Part shown: positions 1,535-28,240 of the stretch, piece after piece
Layout of the letters: every line of letters starts with the position of its first letter
Position numbering within the stretch: position 1 is the stretch's first letter
Virus record (IMG/VR): IMGVR_UViG_3300009184_005291
Coordinates: 1 to 64,000 of that record
Direction: 5' to 3' (one strand)
Length of the DNA stretch: 64,000 nt
Source: a virus
The notes under the pieces: generated by a model
What the model was told of the DNA's origin: nothing
Seen by the model: only the letters and a program-made list of their open reading frames with translations
Databases searched by the model: none
Position numbers and translations under genes: made by a program

Positions 1535-1731
1535 AATTTATTTTGGTTCTCCCATTCTTCGATGATGTAGTTTATGTTGTCGGATAGATAATCTTGTTTT
1601 GATAACCATTCAATGAATTCTTTAGTCCCCAAATCATAAGATTGTTCCATACATTTTTCAACTGAATTTCTATCAAAAAATCCAGTATGCACAATGTGAT
1701 TATTTAATATTTTTTCTAAACTCGGTTTCAT
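1531..1731 (-). CDS. hypothetical protein
   Basis: ATGA overlaps with both neighbours when started at 1731. Confidence 0.6.
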   Translation of the reverse strand: MKPSLEKILNNHIVHTGFFDRNSVEKCMEQSYDLGTKEFIEWLSKQDYLSDNINYIIEEWENQNKL

Positions 1732-2783
1732 GATTCGATTTCTTTTTGCCAAAATGGTCTACTGTACTCCGGTTTTATTAATTTCCAAATAAATGGAGAA
1801 ACGTCTTTCCCGTTCAACATACTGAATAATATTGATGGATGGTCATATCCTTTCGCATTCTCAGCAAAATCCTTTTGTTCTAAATTATTTGATTTCAGTT
1901 CATTGAAGATTTCAGTGTAATCTTTGAGTATATTTTCATATCTGGCAACCAAATCTTTAACCGTAGTTTTCACCCAAGAATCAAATTCATCAGGGACTCT
2001 GTCCAACAATACATTCAAGTCCTTATTGTCTTTCAAATATTCCCAAATGTCCACATTTGAAAACTCGGTCAATAATCTGTGAAGATAAACGTAATCTTCA
2101 CCCTTTATCTTCATTCTAAGACCACTTCTGAATTTAACAACATAACCCTCCCTTTCTTTGGAGATAGAGGATTTGAGGTTCTTATAATCTTGAATTCCGT
2201 CGTATTTTTTGATTACAGGTAATCCCGTTTCTTTATTTATCAATAATAATGAATCATGTTCGAGTTCTTTGCCATTAGCATTACTAATCATCGACAAAAC
2301 AACCAAAGATTCATCACTACCGTAATCACATACAATTCTATTCTGAGGGTAGATTATTTCGACTAAAGTAGTATATCCTTTCGGGATAGGCTCCACATTA
2401 TACTTCTCATCTAATATTTGTCTTGCTCTTATTGATTGTGAAGAAGTAAATGACCCTTTACTAGCGATAATCCATTTACCTTGATACCAAAACAAAATAC
2501 CTAAAGATCCATCAAGTTTTTCATATACTTCGAAATCTTCGTTGGGAATTTCTTGAGGGGAATGTTCTTCCAAATTGAAAAACTTATCAAATGATTTTGC
2601 TATCACATTACCTTGATTGTCCAAAATTAATCCTCTACAACTTTTGGTGATATTATCCCACAATTTTTCGTATTGGGTTTTTCTGGTGTAGTTGTATATA
2701 GATAAAGAAAGGGTTGGATGGTCATTTTTGACCACCAAACCCTTTTCAATGTAATCATTCAATATGTTTAAGTCGAAGTTCAT
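1728..2783 (-). CDS. T4 Rnl1-family RNA ligase
   Basis: Motif I EKLDGSLG, CRGLILD, KFFN, EGYVV and MKIK motifs. Confidence 0.88.
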   Translation of the reverse strand: MNFDLNILNDYIEKGLVVKNDHPTLSLSIYNYTRKTQYEKLWDNITKSCRGLILDNQGNVIAKSFDKFFNLEEHSPQEIPNEDFEVYEKLDGSLGILFWYQGKWIIASKGSFTSSQSIRARQILDEKYNVEPIPKGYTTLVEIIYPQNRIVCDYGSDESLVVLSMISNANGKELEHDSLLLINKETGLPVIKKYDGIQDYKNLKSSISKEREGYVVKFRSGLRMKIKGEDYVYLHRLLTEFSNVDIWEYLKDNKDLNVLLDRVPDEFDSWVKTTVKDLVARYENILKDYTEIFNELKSNNLEQKDFAENAKGYDHPSILFSMLNGKDVSPFIWKLIKPEYSRPFWQKEIES

Positions 2784-9514: not shown

Positions 9515-10195
9515 TTATTTACCCTTCTTTTTTGATTTTACGACCTCGTCAATGATACCGTATTCGAGAGCTTGGTTACTATCCAACCACAAATCTCTAC
9601 TAGCATCAATTTTAACTTGTTCAGGGTCTTTCCCACAGAACTCACCAAGTAAACCAAATAGAATATCATTCAATTTAGCCCACTCTCTCATTGTGATTTC
9701 CGCATCTTGGATGTTACCCACAGCACCACCCGAAGATTGGTGTAGCATTGTTCTAGAGTACTTCAAAGAACTTCTTTTTCCTTTGGTACCTGCTCCCAAC
9801 AATACAGACCCCATAGATGCCGCCATTCCTGTGTTCACAGTTCTAATGTCACAAGCAATGTAGTTCATTACATCAACCATAGATAGTCCTGATTTCACAC
9901 TTCCACCTGGACTGTCAATGTGCATCGTGATATCGGTTTTATCAACATTGTCCATGAACATCAATTGTGCCTGTACAATAGTTGACATTCTATCATCGAC
10001 AGGGCCAGCAACCCAAATGATTCTGTCTCTCATCAATCTTGAGAAGATGTCAATCTGAGTAGCTCTCATCTCTCTTTCTTCAAGAATGTAAGGAGTCATA
10101 GACGACTGAATTTGATTTGAGAAGTTGTGAAGATCCAATGATCCTTTACCCAAATGGTTTACGTAATAATTTTGAAATTCTTGTCCGATGTTCAT
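9515..10195 (-). CDS. clpP: ATP-dependent Clp protease proteolytic subunit
   Basis: DIFSRLMRDRII, IDSPGGSV, AASMGS (Ser), MLHQ (His), RD motifs. Confidence 0.95.
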   Translation of the reverse strand: MNIGQEFQNYYVNHLGKGSLDLHNFSNQIQSSMTPYILEEREMRATQIDIFSRLMRDRIIWVAGPVDDRMSTIVQAQLMFMDNVDKTDITMHIDSPGGSVKSGLSMVDVMNYIACDIRTVNTGMAASMGSVLLGAGTKGKRSSLKYSRTMLHQSSGGAVGNIQDAEITMREWAKLNDILFGLLGEFCGKDPEQVKIDASRDLWLDSNQALEYGIIDEVVKSKKKGK

Positions 10196-10873: not shown

Positions 10874-10945
10874 GGACCCGTAGCTCAGAGGAAGAGCAGC
10901 GCTCTCATAAAGCGAAGGTCGGGATATCATGATTCCCCGGGTCCA
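10874..10945 (+). tRNA. tRNA with CAU anticodon (Ile2 or elongator Met), atypical T-loop
   Basis: GGACCCG/CGGGTCC acceptor, loop CTCATAA, T-arm GGGAT-ATCATGA-TTCCC. Confidence 0.8.
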
Positions 10946-11786: not shown

Positions 11787-11791
11787 ACAGT

Positions 11792-11965
11792 ACTTACTAC
11801 GCTACCCATAAGAACAGCGTCCCAGGGTAAGTCGTGTACCTCGATGTTAACCGTAAGAACAACACAGAGGTTGTATCGTGATATAAGTGAATAGCCCAAG
11901 GTATAAGCTAAAATCACACCCCTAACCTCTATTCAAATGACGATTTGATTATGTTAGGTTTTTTT
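11792..11965 (+). ncRNA. putative structured RNA, four hairpins, two with near-identical loops
   Basis: Manual fold; loops ACCCATAAGAAC and AACCGTAAGAAC. Confidence 0.5.
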
Positions 11966-12053
11966 GGAGAGATGGCAGAGTTGGCCGATTGCACCTGACT
12001 TGAAATCAGGAGTACCTGTGAGGGTACCGTGGGTTCGAATCCTACTCTCTCCT
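11966..12053 (+). tRNA. tRNA-Ser(UGA)
   Basis: CCTGA-CTTGAAA-TCAGG, long variable arm, GTTCGAATC. Confidence 0.92.
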
Positions 12054-12060
12054 CATCATA

Positions 12061-12155
12061 ATTGTGACGATTCGAAAGAATGACGGAACGGACGCTAAGA
12101 ATGAAATGGAAACTGAAGGATTATCCTTGGAAACAAACCGTACAGACGTTACAAT
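12061..12155 (+). ncRNA. putative structured RNA with ANGGA repeats
   Basis: Closing stem ATTGTGACG/CGTTACAAT, GAAA-capped hairpin, ACGG/CCGT inner stem. Confidence 0.45.
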
Positions 12156-12177
12156 CTTTTTCACAAATTAAATCATA

Positions 12178-12531
12178 ATGGCACATCCAAACTTACATGC
12201 AAAATCATCCGCCAAAAAGTTTGGTGGAAAACCTGAGGACTACATTCATTTACATGAATGGTTAGACGAAACCAAGTCATGGTTTGGTGATTCCTTACAT
12301 AGAATGTTTCGGCACCATAGTGAGGGGATATTCGAAATGGAAAAAAGGTTTGGTACCGAATTCAAAAACTCAGATGGAAAAACGGTTTATACTCGTTATG
12401 TTGGAGAACAACATATCAAGGAAGATTGTAATAACTACATTCCATCAGCCAAAGAATGGGTTAACAACATGATGTCCAATCAAAGACCACAGTGGATGTT
12501 GAAGACCATTAAATTAGAATTCGAAGACTGA
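12178..12531 (+). CDS. DUF6915-like protein
   Basis: MAHPxxHAKSSAKKFGGKPEDY...HRxxRHHSEGI...GEQHxxED signature (recalled). Confidence 0.75.
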   Translation: MAHPNLHAKSSAKKFGGKPEDYIHLHEWLDETKSWFGDSLHRMFRHHSEGIFEMEKRFGTEFKNSDGKTVYTRYVGEQHIKEDCNNYIPSAKEWVNNMMSNQRPQWMLKTIKLEFED

Positions 12532-12542
12532 TATTTATTTGT

Positions 12543-13241
12543 ATGTCACAAAATATATTAACACCAGAAGAAAAAAAATATTTAGGAAAAATATCAAGGT
12601 TTCTTAGATCGATGGGAATGAGATATGGAGAAATTCAATTTGAAATGGAACCGGACCAAGAGGGAATTGCGTACAGTCCAAACGATTTTCCAACTCATTT
12701 TGAAAATAATTATACCGCAGAAATACCGGACGGCCTTGTACCAATATTGAAAAAAATTATTGACTATGTTGATGATGATGGGTTATATAGCGAGGTACCT
12801 TATGATGGTTACCTCATTTATCAAAGATTTGACATTACAATTAATGCTATGTCAGGAGAAATATCTTTAACACACTCCTATAGTTATCAAATTGAGGGAG
12901 GTTCACAAGGTATCGAATACGATGATATGATTGAAGAGTGGGAAGAAAAAGGAGTTTTCAATGATACCGAAATTCCTGAAGACAATTATTTGGTCTTGAA
13001 GTATAATGGAGGTGGAGATAGTGGATACATCGAATCGAATTTTGAGAATGGAGAACCTGTACCAACCGAAGTAGAAGAATGGTGTTATCAACAATTGGAA
13101 GATAACTTCGCAGGCTGGGAGATAAATGAAGGATCTCAAGGTGAATTCCAATTTGATTTTAATGAAAAAACAGTTATATTATCACACGCATACAACATTG
13201 AAGAATCTAGATCCAACACACTGTGGGAAGAAGAATTTTAG
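12543..13241 (+). CDS. acidic protein with DUF6878-like C-terminal domain
   Basis: YNGGGDSG...GWEINEGSQGEF signature (recalled). Confidence 0.65.
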   Translation: MSQNILTPEEKKYLGKISRFLRSMGMRYGEIQFEMEPDQEGIAYSPNDFPTHFENNYTAEIPDGLVPILKKIIDYVDDDGLYSEVPYDGYLIYQRFDITINAMSGEISLTHSYSYQIEGGSQGIEYDDMIEEWEEKGVFNDTEIPEDNYLVLKYNGGGDSGYIESNFENGEPVPTEVEEWCYQQLEDNFAGWEINEGSQGEFQFDFNEKTVILSHAYNIEESRSNTLWEEEF

Positions 13242-13258
13242 AATGATTTATTAAATTT

Positions 13259-13909
13259 ATGGTGGAAACAACAATTATCAACGAAGATTTTAGAAACTGC
13301 GACATACCAACAGGATTAACAATAACCGACCCACCTTATAATCAAGAATATTCATACAACGAATACAAAGACAAGTTAACTGAACAGGATTATATTGAGT
13401 TATTATCCAAAATCCCAACTCCTTGTGTCATTATTCATTACCCAGAAGAAACAATCAACTTGTTACCAAAGGCAATAAATGATAAATGTGAACAGGTTGT
13501 TTGTTGGGTGTATAACTCCAACACAGGGAAACAAAGTCGATTGATATCATGGTGGGGTTGTAAGCCGGACTTCAGGAAAGTCAGACAGGAATATAAAAAT
13601 CTCAAAGACAAACGTATTCAAAAAAGAATTGCTGAAGGAAAGACTGGTGCCAAACTTTATGATTGGTGGGAAATTAATCAGGTAAAGAATGTCAGCAAAG
13701 AAAAAACCGAACACCCTTGTCAAATTCCTGAGGAAGTAATCCGAAGAATTATTTTGACAACCGCACAACCAAATCAAACAATTATTGATGTGTTCGGTGG
13801 AAGTGGGACGACAAGTAAGGTAGCTCAAGAGTTGGGATTCAACTCAATTAGTTATGAAATCGATGAGAAGTATTGTGAAATTATGAAACATCGGGTTGAA
13901 AGTATCTGA
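13259..13909 (+). CDS. DNA amino-methyltransferase (N6A/N4C, beta class)
   Basis: DPPY precedes HPCQ and DVFGGSGTT motif I. Confidence 0.88.
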   Translation: MVETTIINEDFRNCDIPTGLTITDPPYNQEYSYNEYKDKLTEQDYIELLSKIPTPCVIIHYPEETINLLPKAINDKCEQVVCWVYNSNTGKQSRLISWWGCKPDFRKVRQEYKNLKDKRIQKRIAEGKTGAKLYDWWEINQVKNVSKEKTEHPCQIPEEVIRRIILTTAQPNQTIIDVFGGSGTTSKVAQELGFNSISYEIDEKYCEIMKHRVESI

Positions 13910-13935
13910 AACTTTCATTATATTTGTAGAATAAT

Positions 13936-14256
13936 GTCCGGGTGATGAAATCGGTAGACATGCAAGACTTTAGAGGTAGACATGAATACTTTTATTAAAG
14001 TATTAAAGTTTACAAAATTGAGTGCCTGAGGGGAAACCTTCAGAGTAGAATTCCTCAAATTCGGTGAACCTTTTGAAATGGGAATACCGAGCGAAGCCCG
14101 AGAGGGAACGTGTAGAGACTAGACGGGGAACACCTAAATCGAGAGATATGGTGAAGGTATAGTCCAGACCACAAACCGTGAGGGTAGTGAAAACTATAGT
14201 GGTAAGAAAATCTTGTGGCTTAGGCCGTGCGGGTTCAAGTCCCGCCCCGGATACCA
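13936..14256 (+). tRNA. tRNA-Leu(UAA), exons 13936-13970 and 14207-14256, split by intron
   Basis: Joined exons give CAAGA-CTTAAAA-TCTTG, class II variable arm, encoded CCA. Confidence 0.9.
13971..14206 (+). ncRNA. group I intron (IC3-like) in anticodon of tRNA-Leu(UAA)
   Basis: Follows exon U34 and ends in G; P AATTCGGTGAA, Q AATACCGAGC, R GTGTAGAGACTAGACG, S AAGGTATAGTCC; no ORF. Confidence 0.88.
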
Positions 14257-14292
14257 AACACTATCGTTCTTTGGAATAAAGGAGAAAATTAT

Positions 14293-14544
14293 ATGGATTT
14301 AGTATCATTTATTTTAGGAATGTCTATAGTTGTGGTCATTGCTGTGGCAGTGGTTGCGGTTATTGCTTTTGTTAGAGTGAATAAACAGAAGGAAGAAATT
14401 AAACAAATAAATCAGTTTCTCGCAAGAGAAATTGAAAATCAAATGAGAGATCGTGATAGAATTATTGACGATATTTATCGAACAATCGATTCACGACTTG
14501 ATAAACTTGAAAGTAGATTGAACGCCGCAAGGCATAAAGATTAA
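14293..14544 (+). CDS. single-TM coiled-coil protein
   Basis: GGAG upstream of ATG 14293; hydrophobic N-terminus, coiled-coil tail. Confidence 0.65.
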   Translation: MDLVSFILGMSIVVVIAVAVVAVIAFVRVNKQKEEIKQINQFLAREIENQMRDRDRIIDDIYRTIDSRLDKLESRLNAARHKD

Positions 14545-14582
14545 ATAAAAACTTTCAAAGACGATAGTGTTATTCACATATT

Positions 14583-14744
14583 ATGTTCGGATTATTCAAG
14601 AAAAAAACAGAAAAAGAAAAATTACAGGAAACTTATGAGAAAATGATGGCAGATGCTTATAAATTATCTCATACAAACAGAACCGCATCTGACAAACTTC
14701 TGGCTGAAGCCGAAGAACTTGCGAAAAAAATATACGGTCAGTAA
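14583..14744 (+). CDS. Lacal_2735-family-like small protein (53 aa, not in ORF track)
   Basis: MFGLFKKKTEKEKLQETYEKMMADAYKLSHTNRTASDKLLAEAEELAKKIYGQ resembles this Bacteroidota family (recalled). Confidence 0.7.
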   Translation: MFGLFKKKTEKEKLQETYEKMMADAYKLSHTNRTASDKLLAEAEELAKKIYGQ

Positions 14745-14749
14745 TATTT

Positions 14750-14824
14750 GTCCCCGTAGCTCAGCTGGATAGTAGCGATTGCCTTCTAAGCAATAGGTCA
14801 CACGTTCGAATCGTGTCGGGGATA
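14750..14824 (+). tRNA. tRNA-Arg(UCU)
   Basis: ATTGC-CTTCTAA-GCAAT; canonical D and T arms. Confidence 0.92.
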
Positions 14825-14847
14825 CAAAATATTTCAGTATATTTGTA

Positions 14848-14938
14848 TTGTGATTGAGGAGCACGATTTAGATACACAAGCTCAATTACAAACTGGGTGA
14901 CACGGGAACGATTCAGATACTAGTGTTACCCTTTTTTT
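14848..14938 (+). ncRNA. putative twin-hairpin sRNA
   Basis: Own TATATTTG promoter, two hairpins sharing loop ACGATTYAGATAC, poly-T end. Confidence 0.6.
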
Positions 14939-15007
14939 ATTAGATATCAGAATAAATAATTTTACAAAATAAAAATATTTCATACATTAGAAGTACTTAT
15001 CAATACA

Positions 15008-15097
15008 ATGAGAACTACAAGTCAACATATTAACAGTAATAGTCAACAAGAGAATTGTTGTTATGAAAGTATTTGCCCTGTAGTTCGGATGTCATAG
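15008..15097 (+). CDS. putative leader peptide (29 aa)
   Basis: MRTTSQHINSNSQQENCCYESICPVVRMS followed by terminator hairpin. Confidence 0.4.
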   Translation: MRTTSQHINSNSQQENCCYESICPVVRMS

Positions 15098-15133
15098 AAA
15101 GTAATTTTTTAATTTAAGTTAAATTAAATTTTT

Positions 15134-15170
15134 AGACCCCGAACTCTTAAAAAAAGTTTGGGGTTTTTTT
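15134..15170 (+). terminator. intrinsic terminator
   Basis: AGACCCCGAACT...AGTTTGGGGTTTTTTT. Confidence 0.75.
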
Positions 15171-15222
15171 ATGACATGTTTTTGTTCTTTGAAATATTGT
15201 AGTATCTTTGTAAGACAAACAT

Positions 15223-15296
15223 GCTCCGGTCGTCTAATTGGTTAGGACATCCCCCTTTCACGGGGAAGCTTACGGGTTCGAGTCCCGTCCGGAGTA
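15223..15296 (+). tRNA. tRNA-Glu(UUC)
   Basis: TCCCC-CTTTCAC-GGGGA; canonical cloverleaf. Confidence 0.92.
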
Positions 15297-15420
15297 CTGA
15301 CACGAGAGGCAACCGAAGGCATACTAGACACTGTTTAGGCAATGGGAACGATCACACAGAATACCTCTCTCTCGTAGGTAAGTTTCAAGTTCTGTTGACT
15401 GTGGGGAAAGTCCCACTCTA

Positions 15421-15510
15421 TAGTCAGGTGGTGTAATGGTAGCACTCGGTGAAGTAGACGCAGTAATGTAGTCCCAATCCGTAGTACAGGTTCGAATCCT
15501 GTTCTTACTA
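15421..15510 (+). ncRNA. tRNA-like RNA 1 (acceptor, D and T arms; anticodon arm replaced)
   Basis: AGTCAGG-TG-GTGT AATGGTA GCAC ... ACAGG TTCGAAT CCTGT TCTTACT A. Confidence 0.7.
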
Positions 15511-15524
15511 CAAATAAAAAATAT

Positions 15525-15659
15525 ATGAAATGGATTATTAGACAATTTGGAAACGTATGGTGTTTATTTGTACATGGCTTTGTTTTAGATAAACACAAAA
15601 TGCATAAAGCATATGGACCACAAGAATGTCAAAAATGTGGTAGGTGGTGGGATTTATAA
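15525..15659 (+). CDS. small Cys/His (zinc-finger-like) protein, 44 aa, not in ORF track
   Basis: MKWIIRQFGNVWCLFVHGFVLDKHKMHKAYGPQECQKCGRWWDL. Confidence 0.55.
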   Translation: MKWIIRQFGNVWCLFVHGFVLDKHKMHKAYGPQECQKCGRWWDL

Positions 15660-15666
15660 TAGTCAG

Positions 15667-15891
15667 GTGAAAAAATTAAAAGTTGTGGAAAAAGAAATAA
15701 GTAAAGAAACTGATGAGTTTATTGATAAATTAGACCATCTGTGTTGGGAACATGGCTTTGAAATTTGGCCAACTGACACTATTAACAAAAGAAATGAAGA
15801 CGGCTCATATCCCACCTTTACTATTCATAATATAGGTAGTGGTGAAACAGTAAGATTGATATATGTCGATGGTGACGGAAGAGGTAAATAA
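15667..15891 (+). CDS. hypothetical protein
   Basis: 3' part of tracked ORF 15613-15891; GTG start chosen to avoid overlap. Confidence 0.5.
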   Translation: MKKLKVVEKEISKETDEFIDKLDHLCWEHGFEIWPTDTINKRNEDGSYPTFTIHNIGSGETVRLIYVDGDGRGK

Positions 15892-15897
15892 TTAGGC

Positions 15898-16006
15898 TAG
15901 TCAGGTGGCGGAATTGGTAGACGCTAGGGAGTTGGTACAAAAACTCTATCAGATGCATTGATAATGTACCTCATACATCATACAGGTTCGAATCCGGTTC
16001 TAACTA
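15898..16006 (+). ncRNA. tRNA-like RNA 2 (Leu-type D arm, multi-hairpin insert, T arm)
   Basis: AGTCAGG-TG-GCG GAATTGGTAGA CGC ... ACAGG TTCGAAT CCGGT TCTAACT A. Confidence 0.7.
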
Positions 16007-16077
16007 CGCAAAAAACAAATAAGATGGAGTTTCTTTACCCTTTCGAGGATGAGTTTTAGAAATCTAAATTATTATAT

Positions 16078-16149
16078 GGTGGCCGTAGCCTAGTGGGAGG
16101 GCGGAAGTTTGTGGCACTTCAGGTAAGAGTTCGATTCTCTTCGGTCACA
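16078..16149 (+). tRNA. tRNA-His(GUG)
   Basis: GAAGT-TTGTGGC-ACTTC; encoded G-1; A rather than C at discriminator. Confidence 0.85.
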
Positions 16150-16153
16150 CAAC

Positions 16154-16221
16154 AGTCAGGTGGTGTAAATGGCAGCACACAGTAGTTAACTGAGGAGCGG
16201 GTTAGAAACCCGTCCTGACAC
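16154..16221 (+). ncRNA. tRNA-like RNA 3 (shortened anticodon arm; degenerate Asn-like)
   Basis: GTCAGG/CCTGAC acceptor, D arm, CAGT-AGTTA-ACTG, T-loop TTAGAAA. Confidence 0.6.
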
Positions 16222-16230
16222 CTTATCAAT

Positions 16231-16304
16231 GGTCAGATACCCAAGTGGCTTAAGGGGCTTGTCTGCAAAACAAGTATCCATCGGTTCGAATCCGATTCTG
16301 ACCT
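16231..16304 (+). tRNA. tRNA-Cys(GCA)
   Basis: CTTGT-CTGCAAA-ACAAG; U73. Confidence 0.92.
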
Positions 16305-16322
16305 CATTTAATTAATTAAAAT

Positions 16323-16739
16323 ATGAAAATTGTAATTGTAAGCGGTTATTTTAATCCTGTTCATAAGGGACATATTGAATATTTCAATAAGTCCAAAGAA
16401 CATGGTGATAAACTCTATGTTATCGTCAATAACGACAAACAGAGAGAGTTGAAAGGTAGTAAAGAATTCCAAGATGAAGATGAAAGAATGTTCATCATCC
16501 AAAACCTTAAAATGGTTGATAGAGTATTTCTTTCAGTTGACACAGATCGAACTGTGTGTAAGACAATCGAATTGATCCATTCTTTTGGGGATAGGGACGA
16601 CGAATTCTTATTTGCCAATGGTGGGGACCAAAACAATAATAGCATCCCTGAGACACCTATTTGTGATTGGTTGGGGGTTAAATTGATTGATGGACTTGGA
16701 GATAAAATCCAATCTTCATCTTGGTTGTTGAAGAAGTAA
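16323..16739 (+). CDS. cytidylyltransferase-family (HIGH) protein
   Basis: SGYFNPVHKGH, FANGGD, KIQSSS motifs. Confidence 0.88.
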   Translation: MKIVIVSGYFNPVHKGHIEYFNKSKEHGDKLYVIVNNDKQRELKGSKEFQDEDERMFIIQNLKMVDRVFLSVDTDRTVCKTIELIHSFGDRDDEFLFANGGDQNNNSIPETPICDWLGVKLIDGLGDKIQSSSWLLKK

Positions 16740-16810
16740 ACATCTATGGTGAAATGGCATCATACCGGATTCCAAACCCGTTGTTCCAAGTTCGAGTCTT
16801 GGTGGGTGTG
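16740..16810 (+). tRNA. tRNA-Trp(CCA), weak anticodon stem
   Basis: Loop TTCCAAA, T arm CCAAG-TTCGAGT-CTTGG; two mismatches in anticodon stem. Confidence 0.7.
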
Positions 16811-16812
16811 CA

Positions 16813-16903
16813 AAATGTAAACTTCAGTACCCACACAGCAGTGGAGATGGGCTAAGTTAGATACGATTCCTCGTAGCTGGGAGTAGAATGCTGAAGAACA
16901 TTT
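16813..16903 (+). ncRNA. putative multibranch structured RNA
   Basis: AAATGT/ACATTT and CTTCAGTA/TGCTGAAG closing stems; CCCA/TGGG and TACGA/TCGTA arms. Confidence 0.45.
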
Positions 16904-16910
16904 ATAGGTT

Positions 16911-17033
16911 GATTGGGGAAGGAATGTATGTTAACCTGATGATGGAGGTGGTACATTTGGAGTTTGGAATCATCGTAGTAATGCCAATCGTAAAAGGAGA
17001 TGTCCACTGAACCATCTTCTCCTTTTCCTAATC
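16911..17033 (+). ncRNA. putative four-way-junction RNA
   Basis: GATTGGGGAAGG/CCTTTTCCTAATC closing stem with three internal hairpins. Confidence 0.5.
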
Positions 17034-17101
17034 TTTCAAAAAAAAATAAATAATTTTTTATTTTGATAGAAAAGTTTTATCTTTGTCTAAAATAATAAAT
17101 T

Positions 17102-17530
17102 ATGACCATTTCTGAGACACAAAAAAATAAATTTTATGAGTTAGGGAATACATTACCAAAATGTGTAAATCCTGGATGTGAAAATGATGTTGCAGTCAGA
17201 AACTGGGGAAATTGGTCATTCAAATCAGAATGTTCTCGGTGTCAATCAGACAGAAAAAAGGGATTAATAAGGGAGGGTATCACAATTCATAAAAAAGAAT
17301 ATTGTGAAAATATTGACGGTCATTTAGGATTCAAATGCCCTGTTCCCACAAAAGAAAGTTGGAAAGGGTTTGAAATAGGATGTTTAGATTTGGACCACAT
17401 AAATGGAGACCATAATAATAATTCAATTGAAAATGTTAAAACATATTGTAAATTGTGCCATAATAAAAAGAGCGTCGAAAGCGGCGATTGTTCTAATAAA
17501 AAAAAATCCGCAAGAATTTTTAATCACTAA
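17102..17530 (+). CDS. Cys-rich HNH-type endonuclease
   Basis: CVNPGC, CSRC, LDLDHINGDHNNNSIENVKTYCKLCH. Confidence 0.75.
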   Translation: MTISETQKNKFYELGNTLPKCVNPGCENDVAVRNWGNWSFKSECSRCQSDRKKGLIREGITIHKKEYCENIDGHLGFKCPVPTKESWKGFEIGCLDLDHINGDHNNNSIENVKTYCKLCHNKKSVESGDCSNKKKSARIFNH

Positions 17531-18327
17531 TGGAACAAAAAATTATTCATGAAGATTGTATTCAGGGGCTTAAAAAAATAAAAAATGAGATTATAAATCT
17601 AACATGGACATCACCACCATATTATAACGCTAAATCATATAGTGAATGGCCAACATATCAAGACTATCTTGATTTCTTAAAAGATGTTTTCTCTGAAGTT
17701 TTTAGAGTTACTTTGCCAGGTAGAATGTGTATTGTGAATCTTTCACCTGTAATTGTTCAAAGAGAATCTAGATCACATGAAAGTAAAAGATTGGCAATCC
17801 CTTTTCATTTTTTCACAATTATGGAATCTTTGGGTTGGAAATATATTGATGATATTGTTTGGGTTAAACCCGAAGGTTCTGCCATAAATAGAAACGGGGG
17901 GTTTTATCAACATCGTAAACCTGTTGCGTATAAACCTAATTTAGTATCTGAAACTATTTTTGTATTTCAAAAACCAGCGAATTTTTTGATAGACAAAATT
18001 GTTAGGTCATATAATGGTGAAGATTTGGAAAAATCATTAGTTAAAGGTCACTATGAAAGGAGTAATGTTTGGTTAATCAACCCTGAAACAAAATCAAAAC
18101 ATTTAGCTCCATACCCTGAAAAACTATCGGATAATATAATCCAATATTATTCTTTCTACGGAGATATTGTTTTAGACCCTTTTTTGGGATCAGGAACAAC
18201 TTTACTTTCCTGTGAAAAATATGGTAGGAATGGTATTGGTTATGAAATTCATAAGGAATATGTGGAAATGTCTGAAAAAAGAATAGAAGAATATAGAAAG
18301 AACAATAATCAACAAGAATTATTTTAA
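17530..18327 (+). CDS. DNA methyltransferase (SPPY, likely N4-cytosine, beta class)
   Basis: TSPPY, HLAPYP, DPFLGSGTT. Confidence 0.9.
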   Translation: MEQKIIHEDCIQGLKKIKNEIINLTWTSPPYYNAKSYSEWPTYQDYLDFLKDVFSEVFRVTLPGRMCIVNLSPVIVQRESRSHESKRLAIPFHFFTIMESLGWKYIDDIVWVKPEGSAINRNGGFYQHRKPVAYKPNLVSETIFVFQKPANFLIDKIVRSYNGEDLEKSLVKGHYERSNVWLINPETKSKHLAPYPEKLSDNIIQYYSFYGDIVLDPFLGSGTTLLSCEKYGRNGIGYEIHKEYVEMSEKRIEEYRKNNNQQELF

Positions 18328-18364
18328 GAAAACTTACTATCTTTGTCGCGATTTGGACTCTACA

Positions 18365-18389
18365 GCAGGTTCGAGTCCTATCGGTCCCA
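18365..18389 (+). pseudogene. orphan tRNA 3' fragment (T arm plus acceptor 3' strand)
   Basis: GCAGGTTCGAGTCCTATCGGTCCCA with no matching 5' half upstream. Confidence 0.6.
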
Positions 18390-18390
18390 C

Positions 18391-18471
18391 AAGACAGACA
18401 CACGCTTCCCACGGTGTTAAAGTACAAGGATAATGAAGAGAATAATACGTCTCCTAAGGTCTGTCTAAACT
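18391..18471 (+). repeat. 81-nt structured direct repeat, copy 1
   Basis: Identical to 19644-19724; AGACAGAC/GTCTGTCT terminal stem. Confidence 0.9.
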
Positions 18472-18541
18472 GTCTCATGGTGTAACGGTAGCACAAGTCA
18501 CTTTGGTTGACTTAGTTCAGGTTCGAATCCTGATGAGATAT
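18471..18541 (+). tRNA. tRNA-Gln(UUG)
   Basis: AGTCA-CTTTGGT-TGACT; U1-A72. Confidence 0.9.
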
Positions 18542-18594
18542 CAAGTTATTCATGTTCCAAAACATGAAAAAACAGTAAGTTTTGGAACATGAAT

Positions 18595-18679
18595 AGAGAA
18601 TTGCCTGAGTGGTTAAAGGAGCAGATTGCTAATCTGTCATCTCGAAAGGGATGCATTGGTTCGAATCCAATATTCTCTG
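18595..18679 (+). tRNA. tRNA-Ser(GCU)
   Basis: GCAGA-TTGCTAA-TCTGT; long variable arm; G73. Confidence 0.92.
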
Positions 18680-18684
18680 CATTT

Positions 18685-18827
18685 TGTAAGGTGTTGAAAT
18701 TGGCAGACAATCCCCGCCTGTCTCGTGGGGGAGGATCATCTGATAAACGAAGGATAATGGGTTGACCACAATCATGTAATGTCCTTTGGCTAAAGACCTC
18801 GTGGTGGTTCGAATCCATCTCTTACAG
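18685..18827 (+). tRNA. atypical 143-nt tRNA with GUC anticodon and ~70-nt variable arm
   Basis: TGTAAGG/TCTTACA acceptor, CCCGC-CTGTCTC-GTGGG, GGTGG-TTCGAAT-CCATC. Confidence 0.7.
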
Positions 18828-18836
18828 CATAAAAAA

Positions 18837-18910
18837 GCGGGTATAGCTCAATTGGCTAGAGTGCCGTCCTTCCAAGTCGGAAGTTGTGAGTTCGAATCTC
18901 ACTACCCGCT
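18837..18910 (+). tRNA. tRNA-Gly(UCC)
   Basis: Loop CTTCCAA; GCGGGTA/TACCCGC; U73. Confidence 0.9.
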
Positions 18911-18926
18911 CTTTTACTTACAATAA

Positions 18927-19000
18927 TGGAATATAGCTCAGTTGGTTAGAGCGCTATCCTGATACGGTAGATGTCGGTGGTTCGAGTCCACCTATTCCAA
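18927..19000 (+). tRNA. tRNA-Ile(GAU)
   Basis: CTATC-CTGATAC-GGTAG; canonical arms. Confidence 0.9.
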
Positions 19001-19001
19001 C

Positions 19002-19337
19002 ATGGAAAATGTAATCAAGAAAAATAAAAACAAGGTAAAACTTGAGAAGATTGTAAAGGAGTATAATGATGCAAGTTCTTATGAAATTTGGGAGGGTGTC
19101 CGAGATAATTTTATCTTTGGATTCATCGCGGCAACCTTGGTTGTTTTTATCGCAACTCAGACTGATTTGGCGGTTTTAATAGGTTATTTGACTTATTATT
19201 TCTTTATGGGTAAAATTGTTAATAGACCTAAATATGTTACAGATTTGGGTAAGTTAATTGTATTTCCAATACCCTCGGCTCTCGGTGCTTTTGCGGGGTA
19301 TAAACTTTCATATTACTTTTTACAATATTTAAGTTAA
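19002..19337 (+). CDS. membrane protein
   Basis: Three hydrophobic segments. Confidence 0.65.
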   Translation: MENVIKKNKNKVKLEKIVKEYNDASSYEIWEGVRDNFIFGFIAATLVVFIATQTDLAVLIGYLTYYFFMGKIVNRPKYVTDLGKLIVFPIPSALGAFAGYKLSYYFLQYLS

Positions 19338-19435
19338 AAAAAAGGTTTGAAAAAAAACTAAATTATTTGACTCTTCCGTGAAAATTCAATATATTTATAG
19401 TTCGTAAATTAAATTAAAAACAAAAAACAAAAAAA

Positions 19436-19627
19436 ATGAAAAAAATTTTAGTAGTATTCACAATCCTTTCTACAATCGTTCTTGCTTCTTGTGGAGGTAA
19501 GGGTGTTTCAACTGAAGGAACTGATTCTGTATCAGTAGATTCAACTGAAGTAGCTGTTGACACAGTTGCTGTTGAAGTTGTAGATAGCGTTGAGGTTGAA
19601 GCCGATCTAGTTGAGGCTGTAAAGTAA
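19436..19627 (+). CDS. small acidic lipoprotein
   Basis: LASC lipobox followed by DS/DT-rich repeats typical of Bacteroidota. Confidence 0.7.
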   Translation: MKKILVVFTILSTIVLASCGGKGVSTEGTDSVSVDSTEVAVDTVAVEVVDSVEVEADLVEAVK

Positions 19628-19643
19628 TTTTACCACAACAAAA

Positions 19644-19724
19644 AAGACAGACACACGCTTCCCACGGTGTTAAAGTACAAGGATAATGAAGAGAATAATA
19701 CGTCTCCTAAGGTCTGTCTAAACT
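19644..19724 (+). repeat. 81-nt structured direct repeat, copy 2
   Basis: Identical to 18391-18471. Confidence 0.9.
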
Positions 19725-19765
19725 ATCCTATGGTGTAACGGTAGCACAAGAGATTTTGGTTCTCT
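19724..19765 (+). pseudogene. truncated tRNA-Gln(UUG), 5' half only
   Basis: TATCCTA-TG-GTGT AACGGTA GCAC-A-AGAGA TTTTGGT TCTCT, then terminator; no T arm. Confidence 0.7.
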
Positions 19766-19766
19766 T

Positions 19767-19798
19767 AAAAAAAAACCCACCTTTCGGTGGGTTTTTTT
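19767..19798. terminator. bidirectional intrinsic terminator
   Basis: A-run, CCCACC-TTTC-GGTGGG, T-run between convergent units. Confidence 0.8.
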
Positions 19799-26224: not shown

Positions 26225-28240
26225 TTACCGTCCTTTCTTGACTACTTTGACTACTTCATCTTCGACTTTAATCACATAGGTTTTACCTGGTATGATTTTG
26301 TCGGTCAGAACTTCTTCAGATAATAAGTCTTCAACCTTATCTTGAATCGCTCTCTTGAGTGGTCTAGCACCGTATACCTCATCATATCCGATTTTTGATA
26401 GGTAATTCAAAAGTGATTCATCGTAAGTAATCTTATACTTCATTTCTTCAAGACGCTTCATCAACTTTTTAAGTTCGATGTCGGTGATTTTCTTAATGTC
26501 ATCTTGTGATAGAGAATTGAAAACGATAGTATCATCGATACGATTGATGAATTCAGGAGAGAAGAAATTTTTCATTTCTTTCATCAAGATTTCCTTCTTC
26601 GCTTCTTCGTTACTATAGGTATTGTTGGAGAATCCAATACCAGTTCCAAAGTCTTGTAATTTCTTCACACCAAGATTTGAGGTCAAGATGATAAGGGTAT
26701 TCTTGAAGTTAATCTTTCTACCCAAACTATCTGTAACGTGACCATCGTCCAAGATTTGAAGTAATACTGTAAACACATCTTTGTGAGCTTTTTCAACCTC
26801 ATCAAACAAGATGACAGAGTAAGGTTTATTCTTAACCTTTTCGGTCAACAATCCACCTTCTTCGTATCCAACATAGCCTGGAGGTGCCCCAACCAATTTG
26901 GATACGGTGTGTTTTTCTTGATATTCGGACATATCAACACGGATTAACGAATCTTCACTACCGAACATTTCTTTCGCTAGTTGTTTCGCTAAGTGAGTTT
27001 TACCAACACCTGTGGAACCCAAGAATACGAACGAACCAATTGGACGATTTGGATCTTTGATACCAAGTCGATTTCTCTTGATGGATTTTGCGACCTTGAT
27101 TACCGCAGCATCTTGACCAATTACGGTTCCAACAATATGTTTGTCCAAATTGATAAGTGCTTTAGTATCGTCAACCGACATTCTGCTCACAGGGATTTTA
27201 GTCATGTTTGATACCACATCATAAACATCCTCCAAGGTAATCTTTTGTTTGTCTTTGGACATTTGTTCTTCAAACTTTTGTTTTTCTTGTTCCAATTTGT
27301 CCAACAACTTTTTCTCTTTGTCTCTTAGATGTGCCGCTTGTTCGTAATTCTGTTTCTTAACAACATCCATTTTCTGTTGTTTAAGTTCTGCAGCTTTACG
27401 TTTCAAGTCTTCAATCGCTTCAGGAACTTTAAGTTCAGTCTGCATCTTAGCTCCAACTTCATCCAAAATGTCGAATGCTTTGTCAGGAAATTCACGGTCG
27501 GTAATATATCTGTCCGCCAACTTCACACAAGTTTCGATTACTTCATTTGAATAAATTACCTTGTGGTATGTTTCGTATTTATCTCGAACGTTATTCAAAA
27601 TTTGAATTGTTTCTGCTACGGTAGAAGGTTCCACAATCACTTTCTGAAATCTACGCTCCAACGCTCCATCTTTTTCAATGTGTTTTCTGAACTCATCCAA
27701 AGTTGTTGCACCGATTACTTGAATTTCACCACGAGATAATGCCGGTTTGAAGATGTTGGAACCATCCATAGTTCCTGATGAATTACCTGAACCAACTAAA
27801 GTATGAATTTCATCGATGAACACGATAATGTTCGGGTTCGCCTGAAGTTCTTCAATGATTACTTTCATTCTTTCCTCGAATTGACCACGGTATTTTGTAC
27901 CGGCAACAACTGAAGTCAAGTCCAAATTCACAAGTCGTTTATCCAACAAATTACGTGGACATTCACCATTCACAATTTTCATTGCTAAACCTTCAGCAAT
28001 AGCGGTCTTACCACAACCAGGTTCTCCGATAATGATTGGGTTATTCTTTTTTCTTCGTGAAAGAATCTGAGCAATTCTTAGGATTTCTCTATCCCTTCCG
28101 ATTACGGGATCTAGCTTACCTTCTTCGGCAAGTTTATTCAAATCTCTACTGAAATTGTCTAGTACAGGAGTCGAGCTGTCCGCAGCGGACTTCTGTTTTT
28201 TACTCATCATTTTGTCTTCGTCGTCCATTAAGTCGTTCAT
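26225..28240 (-). CDS. clpC: ClpC-like AAA+ ATPase lacking the N-terminal Clp repeat domain
   Basis: Walker A GEPGCGKT and GSTGVGKT, UVR-type middle domain, GIGF ClpP-docking loop, GARPLKR. Confidence 0.88.
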   Translation of the reverse strand: MNDLMDDEDKMMSKKQKSAADSSTPVLDNFSRDLNKLAEEGKLDPVIGRDREILRIAQILSRRKKNNPIIIGEPGCGKTAIAEGLAMKIVNGECPRNLLDKRLVNLDLTSVVAGTKYRGQFEERMKVIIEELQANPNIIVFIDEIHTLVGSGNSSGTMDGSNIFKPALSRGEIQVIGATTLDEFRKHIEKDGALERRFQKVIVEPSTVAETIQILNNVRDKYETYHKVIYSNEVIETCVKLADRYITDREFPDKAFDILDEVGAKMQTELKVPEAIEDLKRKAAELKQQKMDVVKKQNYEQAAHLRDKEKKLLDKLEQEKQKFEEQMSKDKQKITLEDVYDVVSNMTKIPVSRMSVDDTKALINLDKHIVGTVIGQDAAVIKVAKSIKRNRLGIKDPNRPIGSFVFLGSTGVGKTHLAKQLAKEMFGSEDSLIRVDMSEYQEKHTVSKLVGAPPGYVGYEEGGLLTEKVKNKPYSVILFDEVEKAHKDVFTVLLQILDDGHVTDSLGRKINFKNTLIILTSNLGVKKLQDFGTGIGFSNNTYSNEEAKKEILMKEMKNFFSPEFINRIDDTIVFNSLSQDDIKKITDIELKKLMKRLEEMKYKITYDESLLNYLSKIGYDEVYGARPLKRAIQDKVEDLLSEEVLTDKIIPGKTYVIKVEDEVVKVVKKGR

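Follow-up and report, generated by a model that had tools for sequence, protein, structure and literature searches.

Conserved, folded small RNA genes between the tRNAs of a mosaic tRNA operon in a large freshwater phage

The tRNA cluster of phage T4 encodes two small stable RNAs that are not tRNAs, species 1 (rnaC, 139 nt) and species 2 (rnaD, 119 nt), which measure one to two tRNA lengths, lie on the strand of the tRNAs and have, to our knowledge, a function that is still unknown. T4 Rnl1-type RNA ligase, for its part, is known for tRNA repair. A homing endonuclease gene lies within the T4 cluster according to its annotation (NC_000866). Beyond T4, theta ribozymes, which are HDV-like and abut tRNA genes in phages including those of Bacteroidota, are proposed in PMC10879173 to cut phage tRNA 3' trailers, and archaeal C/D box sRNAs are described as circularised by Rnl in PMC9014305. 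On a broader scale, the mining of IMG/VR has yielded 8,495 structured RNA candidates, unnamed motifs of the 'DNAVirus_X' type (PMC10690425).

The DNA analysed here, a window of 64,000 nt, belongs to an 85-kb fragment of a freshwater phage of about 330 kb sampled from lake water, and its array region forms a mosaic tRNA operon. At least 14 tRNA genes are found in the array, one of them containing an intron, together with three tRNA look-alikes (X, Y and H; Table 1), and a promoter pattern of the Bacteroidota type occurs 15 times against 4.1 expected. From sequence comparison, the gaps of the array house at least five conserved folded small RNA genes, B, D, E1, E2 and F, each belonging to a separate, widespread family of compact structured RNAs. 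Compensatory changes that keep the helices, and long unpaired stretches that are invariant, show that these five are real at the RNA level. The remaining gaps differ in origin: tRNA look-alikes, an intron-bearing tRNA-Leu, a leader-peptide attenuator and an insertion encoding an HNH endonuclease and a methylase.

Table 1. Positions of the features discussed, numbered from the first letter of the window.
Feature	Position	Strand	Description
Rnl1-like ligase	1728..2783	-	T4 Rnl1-like RNA ligase gene, ~9 kb from the array
A	11787..11965	+	spacer, tRNA-Thr to tRNA-Ser
B	12061..12157	+	closing stem, invariant core GAAUGACGGAACGGACGC, variable hairpin
tRNA-Leu	13936..14256	+	with 223-nt intron (ARAGORN, intron option)
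C	14838..14938	+	stand-alone sRNA gene, twin hairpins; promoter box and terminator of its own
Leader	15008..15172	+	leader-peptide ORF and terminator, upstream of tRNA-Glu
D	15298..15421	+	conserved structured RNA between tRNA-Glu and 90-nt tRNA-Tyr
X	15899..16006	+	tRNA-like gene with insertion
Y	16154..16222	+	tRNA-shaped element, aberrant T loop
E1	16812..16905	+	two stacked closing helices around ~59-nt core
E2	16905..17033	+	pseudoknotted RNA: stem Ha, crossing helices Hb and Hc, 3' hairpin Hd (invariant loop)
Insertion	17034..18366	+	HNH endonuclease 17102-17530, DNA methyltransferase 17530-18327 (Pfam matches)
tRNA-Tyr remnant	18367..18392	+	3' remnant of destroyed tRNA-Tyr; point where BLAST matches between the gap and relatives begin
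F copy 1	18391..18468	+	three-helix RNA; invariant junction GGAUAAUGA, invariant loop AAUAAUACG
G	18547..18595	+	perfect 17-bp hairpin, tRNA-Gln to tRNA-Ser
H	18685..18832	+	tRNA-like gene; anticodon-like loop CUGUCUC, ~70-nt insertion
F copy 2	19644..19721	+	within 19644..19767, which adds truncated 5' part of tRNA-Gln

An earlier note on this DNA had described eight units in the gaps as GC-enriched, self-contained folds without tRNA, tmRNA or CRISPR form. All eight coordinate sets are indeed non-coding and on the tRNA strand, their G+C is 0.40-0.48 (0.27 for the 49-nt hairpin) against about 0.27-0.40 in the 1-kb bins of the window, and no Rfam 15 family matched any of the listed units, small slices included; the two 81-nt units (18391-18471 and 19644-19724) are identical. 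The folding claim stood for only part of the set: against 200 dinucleotide shuffles it held for two of the eight distinct units, 14848-14931 in C (z -4.15, 0/200 shuffles) and 18547-18595, that is G (z -8.26, 0/200 shuffles), and not for the other six, whose z values run from -0.98 to -1.81 with +1.07 for 15302-15416 in D. The case for structured RNAs rests on comparative evidence and not on the folding of single sequences.

In this evidence E2 is the richest case. Its core was found in 77 viral contigs, and in an alignment of 51 sequences (A3) 95.0% of the cells pair, against 38-57% in slid controls, with both sides changed in 12 of 29 pairs. An anchored test of the two crossing helices gave 7.51 of 8 pairs for cognate strands of Hb (35 distinct versions) versus 5.12 for non-cognate ones, and a mean duplex energy for Hc of -9.53 kcal/mol (cognate) versus -6.57, while hairpin Hd covaries in E2', a paralogue of E2. 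The supported fold comprises an inner stem, the two crossing helices and the 3' hairpin, in place of the terminal stem previously drawn for 16911-17033; a closing stem is absent from E2. E1 is known from 30 distinct variants; double-sided changes affect 12 of its 14 pairs, and pairing reaches 90.4% of the cells versus 34-47% in slid controls (A4); its core includes the invariant stretch AGAUAC.AUUCCUCG, and covariance model R1 scores the site at 108.7 bits. The half-core of F occurs in 36 contigs, 11 of 19 pairs have changed on both sides, 89.0% of the cells pair compared with 37-52% in slid controls (A7), and model R3 gives 97.7 bits on each copy. The covariation of B and D comes from few independent lineages: in B (A5) both partners have changed in 3 of 17 pairs, with 98.8% of cells paired versus 21-42% for slid controls, and in D compensation is seen for 6 of 26 predicted pairs. 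The 18-mer core of B was found in 21 viral contigs; the 17-mer core of D was found in 13 contigs, leading to 10 related and 5 unrelated coding windows, and its outer stem is lineage-specific in sequence with complementarity kept. In the four pair counts that had a shuffle control (E1, F, E2 and B), none of the 500 shuffles attained the paired fraction of the real alignment, and the slid controls across these four paired in 21-57% of cells. It is also worth considering that E2 is about 94% identical in loci where the neighbouring protein is 86% identical, and F about 90% where it is 76%; judged from these identities, the conservation of E2 and F exceeds neutral expectation.

The number of such units has to be lowered. 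The earlier note had counted at least seven structured RNA cassettes, and compensatory changes bear it out for B, D, E1, E2 and F; the count is too high because A and G are without structural support and C is no spacer but a gene running from promoter to terminator. A is represented by nine distinct variants (folding z -1.55), those measured being about 95-99% identical, and since its homologues are only near-identical the fold is unproven; RNA contigs span 11801-11958 with 0 differences. The hairpin of G shows uncompensated mismatches in relatives and is missing where the Gln-Ser gap is 3 nt. As functional RNAs, both A and G are unproven. In C, a TAnnTTTG box (14838-14845) is followed by hairpin 1, hairpin 2 and a T-run serving as terminator; both loops read ACGAUUYAGAUAC, an exact motif found at only these two sites of the window, and among six variants the one in locus L153 carries the same loop motif on different stems.

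The mosaic character of the array is apparent elsewhere. Among the gaps outside the earlier list, several hold tRNA-like elements (X, Y, H) or the remains of a tRNA. X reaches 21.4 bits with the Rfam tRNA model, under the gathering score of 29, and like H is called by ARAGORN at relaxed settings only; Y is called by no tRNA tool used and is conserved in 10 distinct variants, whereas H has 19, with compensated pairs in the stem of its insertion. Relatives carry an uninterrupted tRNA-Leu(taa) at the place matching the intron-bearing gene. The HNH-plus-methylase insertion is unique to this genome and has replaced the 5' part of tRNA-Tyr(GTA), which is intact in loci L002, L003 and L008; the order in relatives is Trp-[E1]-E2-Tyr-F-Gln, and one RNA-library contig, from a relative, lacks 17026-18366 and has 68 other letters in that place. 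F copy 2 lies in a 124-nt repeat that shares 94% identity with 18391-18514, the nearest allele of the copy being L007/L008 (96.6%), and a bidirectional terminator (about 19771-19797) follows this copy and the truncated tRNA-Gln. The segment 15008-15172 is no further cassette: a conserved short ORF of 29 aa (15008-15097) precedes a terminator hairpin (15135-15172), relatives retain the peptide in 32 distinct versions and the region is conserved in 67 loci. This segment resembles the leader-peptide attenuators of amino-acid operons in its short conserved ORF, its terminator and its downstream genes, but it precedes tRNA genes, and its codons, as we read the sequence, are largely ones read by the phage's own tRNAs.

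The modules are covered by lake metatranscriptome contigs that bridge modules and tRNAs: a 417-nt contig joins the leader, tRNA-Glu and D with 0 differences, and a 333-nt contig of a relative bridges E2, tRNA-Tyr, F and tRNA-Gln. Summed depth in run X1 was 149.8 in the E2 bin versus 7.5-13 in the adjacent protein gene, sums that mix strains; contigs give RNA starts, ends and levels only indirectly, and RNA libraries can contain DNA. Contigs of one RNA run also read head to tail, from 17025 to 16903 for E2 (depth 46.1), from 12157 to 12067 for B (depth 21.8) and from 16222 to 16151 for Y, with one extra A (depth 13.5). The last base of the joined E2 unit directly precedes position +1 of tRNA-Tyr, the joined Y unit begins 1-2 nt past tRNA-His and ends in CC plus the extra A, and the extra letters of the joined B unit match the sequence of a relative from its tRNA-Ser end. 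These RNA ends fall at or next to tRNA processing sites, which is compatible with the proposal that tRNAs act as processing punctuation. The neighbours of the modules nevertheless vary between tRNAs, ORFs and other modules, which speaks for portability: 11 of 30 E1, 7 of 14 F, 4 of 13 B and 5 of 7 D variants have no called tRNA on either side, and in locus L094 F stands alone between ORFs. Since modules are found away from tRNAs, such punctuation is frequent and not obligatory, the exception being largely E2, for which a tRNA starts at most 25 nt downstream in 45 of 53 variants (tRNA-Tyr in 31 of these 45) and no called tRNA follows in the other 8.

The likeliest reading, held with middling confidence, is that the modules are stable trans-acting RNAs freed by tRNA processing in the style of T4 species 1 and 2. 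They would be co-transcribed with the tRNAs from the Bacteroidota-type promoters and freed by host tRNA-end processing, with RNase P cleavage at the start of the following tRNA presumably setting the 3' end of E2 and 3'-end processing of the preceding tRNA the 5' ends of modules. With their ends tucked into closing helices or pseudoknots, they may then survive as stable small RNAs whose invariant cores would act in trans, the most probable mode being the binding of a host or phage protein or RNA; a search of the 85-kb fragment for antisense targets gave none. The part in RNA-based anti-defence or host takeover that the earlier note considered possible is not supported by these results. The placement just ahead of a tRNA, seen for E2 in 45 of 53 variants, is as compatible with a role in cis, in the maturation of that tRNA, as with release by RNase P. 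E2 would then be a 5' leader that aids or controls folding, RNase P cleavage or tRNA stability, and the other modules would insulate tRNAs from misfolding or block exonucleases; the predominance of tRNA-Tyr downstream, the short U-rich tail between E2 and tRNA position +1 in the listed variants and the missing closing stem agree with such a role. We nonetheless consider it unlikely: E2 is intact here despite the destroyed tRNA-Tyr (the insertion may be recent), 8 of 53 E2 variants lack a called downstream tRNA and E1, F, B and D often have no called tRNA on either side, and invariant cores of about 20-60 nt in five unrelated families exceed the needs of an insulator. A reading of the gaps as neutral filler, as scars of mobile elements or as tRNA genes in decay seems very improbable. 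An insertion, a tRNA remnant, optional cassettes and a truncated copy of tRNA-Gln make the array a mosaic, X, Y and H derive from tRNAs, and such an origin would suit the near-identical homologues of A and the uncompensated changes of G, but for B, D, E1, E2 and F covariation and invariant cores over many divergent contigs rule it out.

Release by tRNA processing could be extended by a further step, tentative and somewhat doubtful, in which freed modules are joined head to tail into exonuclease-proof circular RNAs. RNase P and RNase Z leave 5'-phosphate and 3'-hydroxyl ends, which are joined by Rnl1-type ligases, so that the ends of the spacers would suit the Rnl1-like enzyme encoded in this genome (Pfam PF09511, E 1.8e-17; T4 RNA ligase 1 in PDB, E 3.8e-13) and in a complete relative, a possible partner of the modules. 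The contigs of E2, B and Y run back on themselves; that of E2 has 163 letters, a unit of 133 plus 30, as expected of a closed cycle if 31-letter words (an assumed size) were used, and in 364 DNA sources (3.48 Mb in total) we found neither the three joints nor tandems of B or Y. Against circles, template switching by reverse transcriptase on abundant small RNAs is a known artefact that yields the same joints, and all of them come from contigs of a single RNA run; moreover, 12 loci carry divergent E2'-E2 tandems at the DNA level, and an identical tandem in an unsampled strain could therefore produce a cyclic contig. Cutting of the array without host RNases, by at least one module acting as a self-cleaving ribozyme, most plausibly E2, strikes us as distinctly improbable. 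No ribozyme family of Rfam 15 matched, slices of 91 and 238 bases included, the supported helices of E2 do not fit the HDV-like order, and five new ribozyme classes in a single operon would be unprecedented; yet invariant cores sit in covarying, pseudoknotted scaffolds exactly at tRNA borders, and HDV-like ribozymes beside phage tRNAs offer a precedent in phages of Bacteroidota (PMC10879173).

Compared with theta ribozymes as presented in PMC10879173, the modules are likewise structured RNAs abutting phage tRNA genes, for which a tRNA end-processing role has been proposed, but they match no HDV-like or other Rfam ribozyme model and E2 differs in helix order. With the archaeal sRNAs of PMC9014305 they share head-to-tail joints of small structured RNAs and a ligase gene, although the circles are only candidates here, the ligase belongs to the T4 Rnl1 type and the genome is that of a bacterial virus. 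The DNAVirus_X motifs come from the same data source, overlap in length (29-151 bases) and were found by covariation; the main text of PMC10690425 names no families from tRNA-array spacers, and its supplementary motif lists may overlap B, D, E1, E2 or F. The parallel drawn with T4 in the earlier note is apt for placement, a homing endonuclease gene within the cluster included, and does not extend to homology: the five families are not homologous to rnaC or rnaD, and covariance models of E1, E2 and F, searched against the T4 tRNA region with filters off, gave nothing at E up to 10 (E1, E2) or 1 (F). Whereas rnaC and rnaD stand at the end of their cluster, at least five unrelated families are interleaved with the tRNAs here, one of them with a pseudoknot supported by covariation.

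Our comparison of relatives shows that one tRNA operon of this phage carries five unrelated families of conserved structured RNA together with one small-RNA gene. The earlier note had described most of the gaps between the tRNA genes as G+C-enriched units that fold on their own behind a closing stem, and the eight units are indeed non-coding where they had been placed, with a G+C content above that of their surroundings. Set against 200 shuffles, the folding held for 14848-14931 (z -4.15, within cassette C) and 18547-18595 (z -8.26, hairpin G) and failed for the others, five of which lie at z -0.98 to -1.81 and one at +1.07. As most of the units do not fold better than shuffled controls, the decision rests on the relatives, and conservation there, on which the earlier note had also staked its reading, is borne out for the cassettes B, D, E1, E2 and F. 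The further statement that the cassettes lack tRNA form stands as well, none of the eight scoring with the tRNA model RF00005 (>29 bits), and no family of Rfam 15 was matched by the spacers: at gathering score the search returned tRNAs only, at E up to 10 it gave nothing credible over the cassettes beyond weak tRNA-driven or terminator matches, and with slices of 91 and 238 bases it gave chance matches alone (E at least 1.3). Antisense targets of every cassette, sought on the 85-kb fragment, amounted to chance matches of 10-17 nt, and two loop motifs of the cassettes show no enrichment in the window outside them; ACGATTYAGATAC, allowing up to two mismatches, occurs 7 times in the window against 3.48 expected (6 of 100 shuffles reach 7), and CRTAAGAACA 7 times against 11.18 expected.

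The window covers the opening 64 kb of an IMG/VR virus record of 85,125 bases, whose completeness is put at 28% by CheckV, and its G+C content runs from about 0.27 to 0.40 per kb. Some of the relatives found through the cytidylyltransferase gene in the array are records of 326-334 kb, which is why we regard it as a jumbo phage. That search gave 251 candidate stretches, 249 of them coding for the marker protein, and 80 loci were retained; the whole array had no match by megablast among 50,697 deposited phage records. The form TTTG-N17-21-TAnnTTTG, which we take to be that of Bacteroidota promoters, occurs 15 times in the window against 4.1 expected, a number reached by none of 100 shuffles. Between 10.8 and 19.8 kb, ARAGORN finds 12 tRNAs on the + strand and Rfam one more at 10874-10945; among them lie protein genes for DUF6915, DUF6878, two DNA methyltransferases, a cytidylyltransferase-like protein and an HNH endonuclease. 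Clp genes stand on either side of the array region, a ClpP-like protease at 9515-10195 (-) and a ClpB/ClpC-like AAA+ ATPase at 26225-28240 (-). At least four tRNAs are found in 17 sources, the window counted, and the array is shuffled in them, still recognisable. From gap BLAST and tRNA maps, the order in relatives is tRNA-Trp, an optional E1, E2, tRNA-Tyr(GTA), a spacer of 80-81 nt that is F, and tRNA-Gln. The cassettes are optional: the Thr-Ser gap measures 3 nt in one relative's locus (L011), the Gln-Ser gap 3 nt in five loci, and the Trp-Tyr gap 5 nt in another (L026).

Features of the tRNA array and its surroundings
Feature	Position	Strand	Remark
T4 Rnl1-like RNA ligase gene	1728-2783	-	about 9 kb from the array; also in a complete 326-kb relative
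Cassette A	11787-11965	+	
Cassette B	12061-12157	+	
tRNA-Leu with a 223-nt intron	13936-14256	+	ARAGORN, intron option
Cassette C	14838-14938	+	
29-codon ORF, terminator, then tRNA-Glu	within 14946-15222 (15008-15172)	+	peptide kept in 32 versions
Cassette D	15298-15421	+	
tRNA-like gene X	15899-16006	+	tRNA-like at both ends
tRNA-like gene Y	16154-16222	+	tRNA-like at both ends
Cassette E1	16812-16905	+	
Cassette E2	16905-17033	+	
HNH endonuclease + DNA methyltransferase insertion	17034-18366	+	at the exact 5' edge of tRNA-Tyr(GTA); intact tRNA in relatives
Cassette F	18391-18468	+	second copy at 19644-19721
Cassette G	18547-18595	+	17-bp hairpin
tRNA-like gene H	18685-18832	+	tRNA-like at both ends

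The 22-mer core of E2 is present in 77 viral contigs. Two of 60 windows (L135 and L176) proved unrelated, and windows near contig ends were not collected. In the alignment of 51 distinct sequences, 95.0% of the cells are paired against 38-57% in slid controls, a level reached by none of 500 shuffles, and 12 of the 29 pairs change on both sides. The closing stem which the earlier note had drawn for E2 is absent from the supported helices. These are the stem Ha, two helices Hb and Hc, and the 3' hairpin Hd; since Hb and Hc cross, E2 has a pseudoknot. A test of Hb anchored on its invariant flanks gave 7.51 of 8 pairs for cognate strands and 5.12 for non-cognate ones over 35 distinct versions, and the Hc duplex reaches -9.53 kcal/mol with its own partner against -6.57 kcal/mol otherwise. 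Ha and Hd are invariant within E2. A divergent paralogue, E2', lies directly upstream of E2 in 12 loci (L138:5426-5670 and 11 others), in tandem between tRNA-Trp and tRNA-Tyr; it retains both outer stems and the hairpin loop, differs in the middle, and one pair of its Hd goes from G-C to U-A to C-G. Among 185,579 prokaryote genomes, the E2 core has a single match, in a Nanoarchaeota MAG and away from any E2 context, so that judging by its distribution the family looks virus-borne. A 40-codon ORF over E1/E2 (16888-17010) was considered as a coding explanation and rejected, the five variable sites inspected by eye being all non-synonymous or stop-removing.

For F, searching with the exact 19-mer of the core gave 13 stretches in viruses and 38 in metagenomes; of the 27 distinct windows from metagenomes, 5 are unrelated. 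A pattern for half of the core matches 36 viral contigs and brings out a shorter subtype. With 22 distinct sequences aligned, 11 of 19 pairs are changed on both sides, and 89.0% of the cells are paired, a share which slid controls (37-52%) and all of 500 shuffles fail to reach. The closing helix comes in many versions, and both GGAUAAUGA at the junction and AAUAAUACG in the loop are invariant. Two of 34 windows (L354:3168-3271 and L357:982-1085) hold only the 3' half of F, that is GGAUAAUGA and the hairpin with the AAUAAUACG loop, behind an unrelated 5' part; they were filtered out and may represent a further subtype. For E1, the 15-mer scan returned at least 119 stretches, mostly by chance, and 30 distinct windows passed the context filter among the matches listed; 27 of these were aligned, leaving out the near-duplicates L025, L107 and L109. 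They share two stacked closing helices, with 12 of 14 pairs changed on both sides and 90.4% of the cells paired against 34-47% in slid controls, and these helices surround a core of about 59 nt which is largely invariant. The B 18-mer is found in 21 contigs, of which 15 windows were aligned after removal of one coding chance match (L213), one hybrid (L216) and four near-duplicates (L205, L208, L212 and L220). Most of B is invariant: 98.8% of the cells are paired against 21-42% in slid controls, and double-sided changes are limited to 3 of 17 pairs. Of the 15 windows gathered for D, 10 were related and the other 5 lay in unrelated coding sequence; folding of nine windows showed compensation at 6 of 26 predicted pairs. 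Two lineages have different outer stems, each still complementary.

Cassette C is not a spacer RNA. It consists of a TAnnTTTG box, two hairpins with the loop ACGAUUYAGAUAC in both, and a T-run. In a relative (L153), the loop motif is kept on different stems, and the core of E1 contains a string related to this motif. By sequence, the second hairpin of C (14895-14931, followed by T7) and 19771-19797 have the terminator form of a G+C-rich hairpin with a T-run; both were missed by a simple terminator scan, for which we suspect the loop length. Hairpin G has no T-run and does not qualify as an intrinsic terminator; in relatives its changes are uncompensated and it is often absent. The nine versions of cassette A are all near-identical, which leaves its fold putative.

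Other parts of the array have their own history. The insertion of an HNH endonuclease and a DNA methyltransferase removed the 5' part of tRNA-Tyr, of which 18367-18392 is the remnant; a second tRNA-Tyr of 90 nt persists at 15422-15511. A relative's RNA-library contig omits exactly this insertion and has 68 other letters in its place, RNA cover of 17120-18203 is almost nil in the four RNA runs, and the relatives are without the insertion. The stretch 19644-19767, made of an identical second F and a truncated tRNA-Gln, occurs in this genome only, and its nearest likeness is the L007/L008 allele of another strain (96.6%), a sequence similarity that suggests recombination between phages. The tRNA-Gln 5' part behind this second F differs from the first copy in its anticodon stem by compensating changes, and a terminator cuts the tRNA off. 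The tRNA look-alikes X, Y and H escape standard tRNA finders; two of the three begin with AGTCAGGTGG, as does the 90-nt tRNA-Tyr. Against the RF00005 threshold of 29 bits, X reaches 21.4 and the truncated tRNA-Gln 21.6. Y is called by no tRNA tool, and H, called by relaxed ARAGORN alone, combines an anticodon-like loop with an insert of some 70 nt in which a stem covaries. The tRNA-Leu intron matched none of the Rfam intron models. An RNA contig (depth 464.7) omits 13971-14221 with 18 other letters between, and could come from an intron-less relative or another organism. The short ORF ahead of tRNA-Glu, conservation of which is the sole point checked, looks like a leader-peptide attenuator, and its codons are largely those read by the phage's own tRNAs.

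Traces of RNA come from 11 runs of lake or freshwater, ten of them recorded as RNA, in which 0.05-0.10 of the sampled words were found; contigs from four were compared. Contigs of 104-326 letters agree without a difference with 11801-11958 (A), 12067-12172 (B), 15083-15408 (leader, tRNA-Glu and D) and 16903-17006 (E2), which shows that close relatives are present in lake and freshwater samples and nothing more, and a 333-letter contig of a relative bridges E2, tRNA-Tyr, F and tRNA-Gln. Contigs of RNA libraries can show neither ends nor levels, and DNA carry-over is possible. In one lake metatranscriptome (X1), depths add up to 149.8 in the E2 bin and to 7.5-13.1 in the protein gene beside it, sums which mix strains and cannot rank genes. 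In the same run, three contigs return upon themselves. That of E2, 163 letters made of a 133-letter unit and 30 more, joins 17025 to 16903 with 10 letters between, which match the tail found in relatives as far as the nucleotide ahead of position +1 of tRNA-Tyr; that of B joins 12157 to 12067 with 11 letters between; and that of Y leads from 16222 back to 16151, an additional A following the encoded CC. None of these joints is found in 364 DNA sources (3.48 Mb), nor is any tandem of B or Y in the same sources. Circles would place RNA termini at the joints, at sites of tRNA processing, and so would template switching by reverse transcriptase, which possibly gave rise to the joints; tandem copies in an unsampled strain are possible too, and identical ones would not place termini there.

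How these modules are made and what they do can be argued at different strengths. It seems reasonable to propose, with moderate confidence, that the modules would be transcribed together with the tRNAs and released when the tRNA ends are processed. With low confidence, we suggest that they may then act in trans through their invariant cores. For E2, a cis role in the maturation of the following tRNA is a live alternative: among 53 distinct cores that lie clear of contig ends, an ARAGORN tRNA starts within 25 nt downstream in 45 (tRNA-Tyr in 31), a tRNA lies upstream in 24, and seven have one on neither side; F, for its part, stands in one locus (L094) alone amid protein genes, with no ARAGORN tRNA in the locus. 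Catalysis by the modules is another live alternative. The five families have strongly conserved cores on covarying scaffolds, one of them pseudoknotted, each across tens of genomes of uncultured freshwater phages, and such constraint is usual for ribozymes, riboswitches and specific protein-binding RNAs. HDV-like Rfam models matched none of the cassettes. The HDV-like order of helices is a nested double pseudoknot, and a mapping of E2 onto it was rejected, the supported order being Ha around the crossing Hb and Hc, then Hd. Circularisation of the modules is the third live alternative, one which can be tested directly given the head-to-tail joints and an Rnl1-like ligase encoded nearby. It is tempting to go further and picture the operon as a production line for at least five new structured-RNA classes, cut by the host's tRNA-processing enzymes and sealed by the phage's own Rnl1-type ligase into circles that serve as long-lived effectors, a picture we hold to be improbable. 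If true, these circles might act, for example, as decoys or inhibitors of host factors that target RNA or tRNA, and bacterial viruses would gain their first described pathway of circular RNA. The families offer concrete biochemical targets, some 70-130 nt in size, for cleavage assays, for pull-downs with ligands or proteins and for structural work, and they bear on what phage tRNA arrays do besides codon supply.

Apart from the T4 RNAs and two studies, our literature searches gave nothing on families of structured RNA lying between the tRNA genes of phages. One study proposes that theta ribozymes in gut phages trim the 3' trailers of tRNAs (PMC10879173); the other mined IMG/VR for 8,495 unnamed structured-RNA candidates, among which our families may possibly have been listed before (PMC10690425). 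In the annotation of T4, rnaC and rnaD adjoin tRNA-Arg and a homing endonuclease gene. Covariance models of E1 and E2 (E up to 10) and of F (E up to 1), run with filters off on this T4 region (L367:909-1172), gave no match, by which E1, E2 and F are ruled out as homologues of rnaC or rnaD; as far as such searches reach, the five families are uncatalogued in Rfam and these three are no kin of the T4 RNAs. The stable non-tRNA RNAs of the T4 cluster have been known for decades and, to our knowledge, were never assigned a function. By placement they are the closest analogue of the cassettes, which, like them, are non-tRNA RNAs lying inside a phage tRNA cluster and on the strand of the tRNAs.
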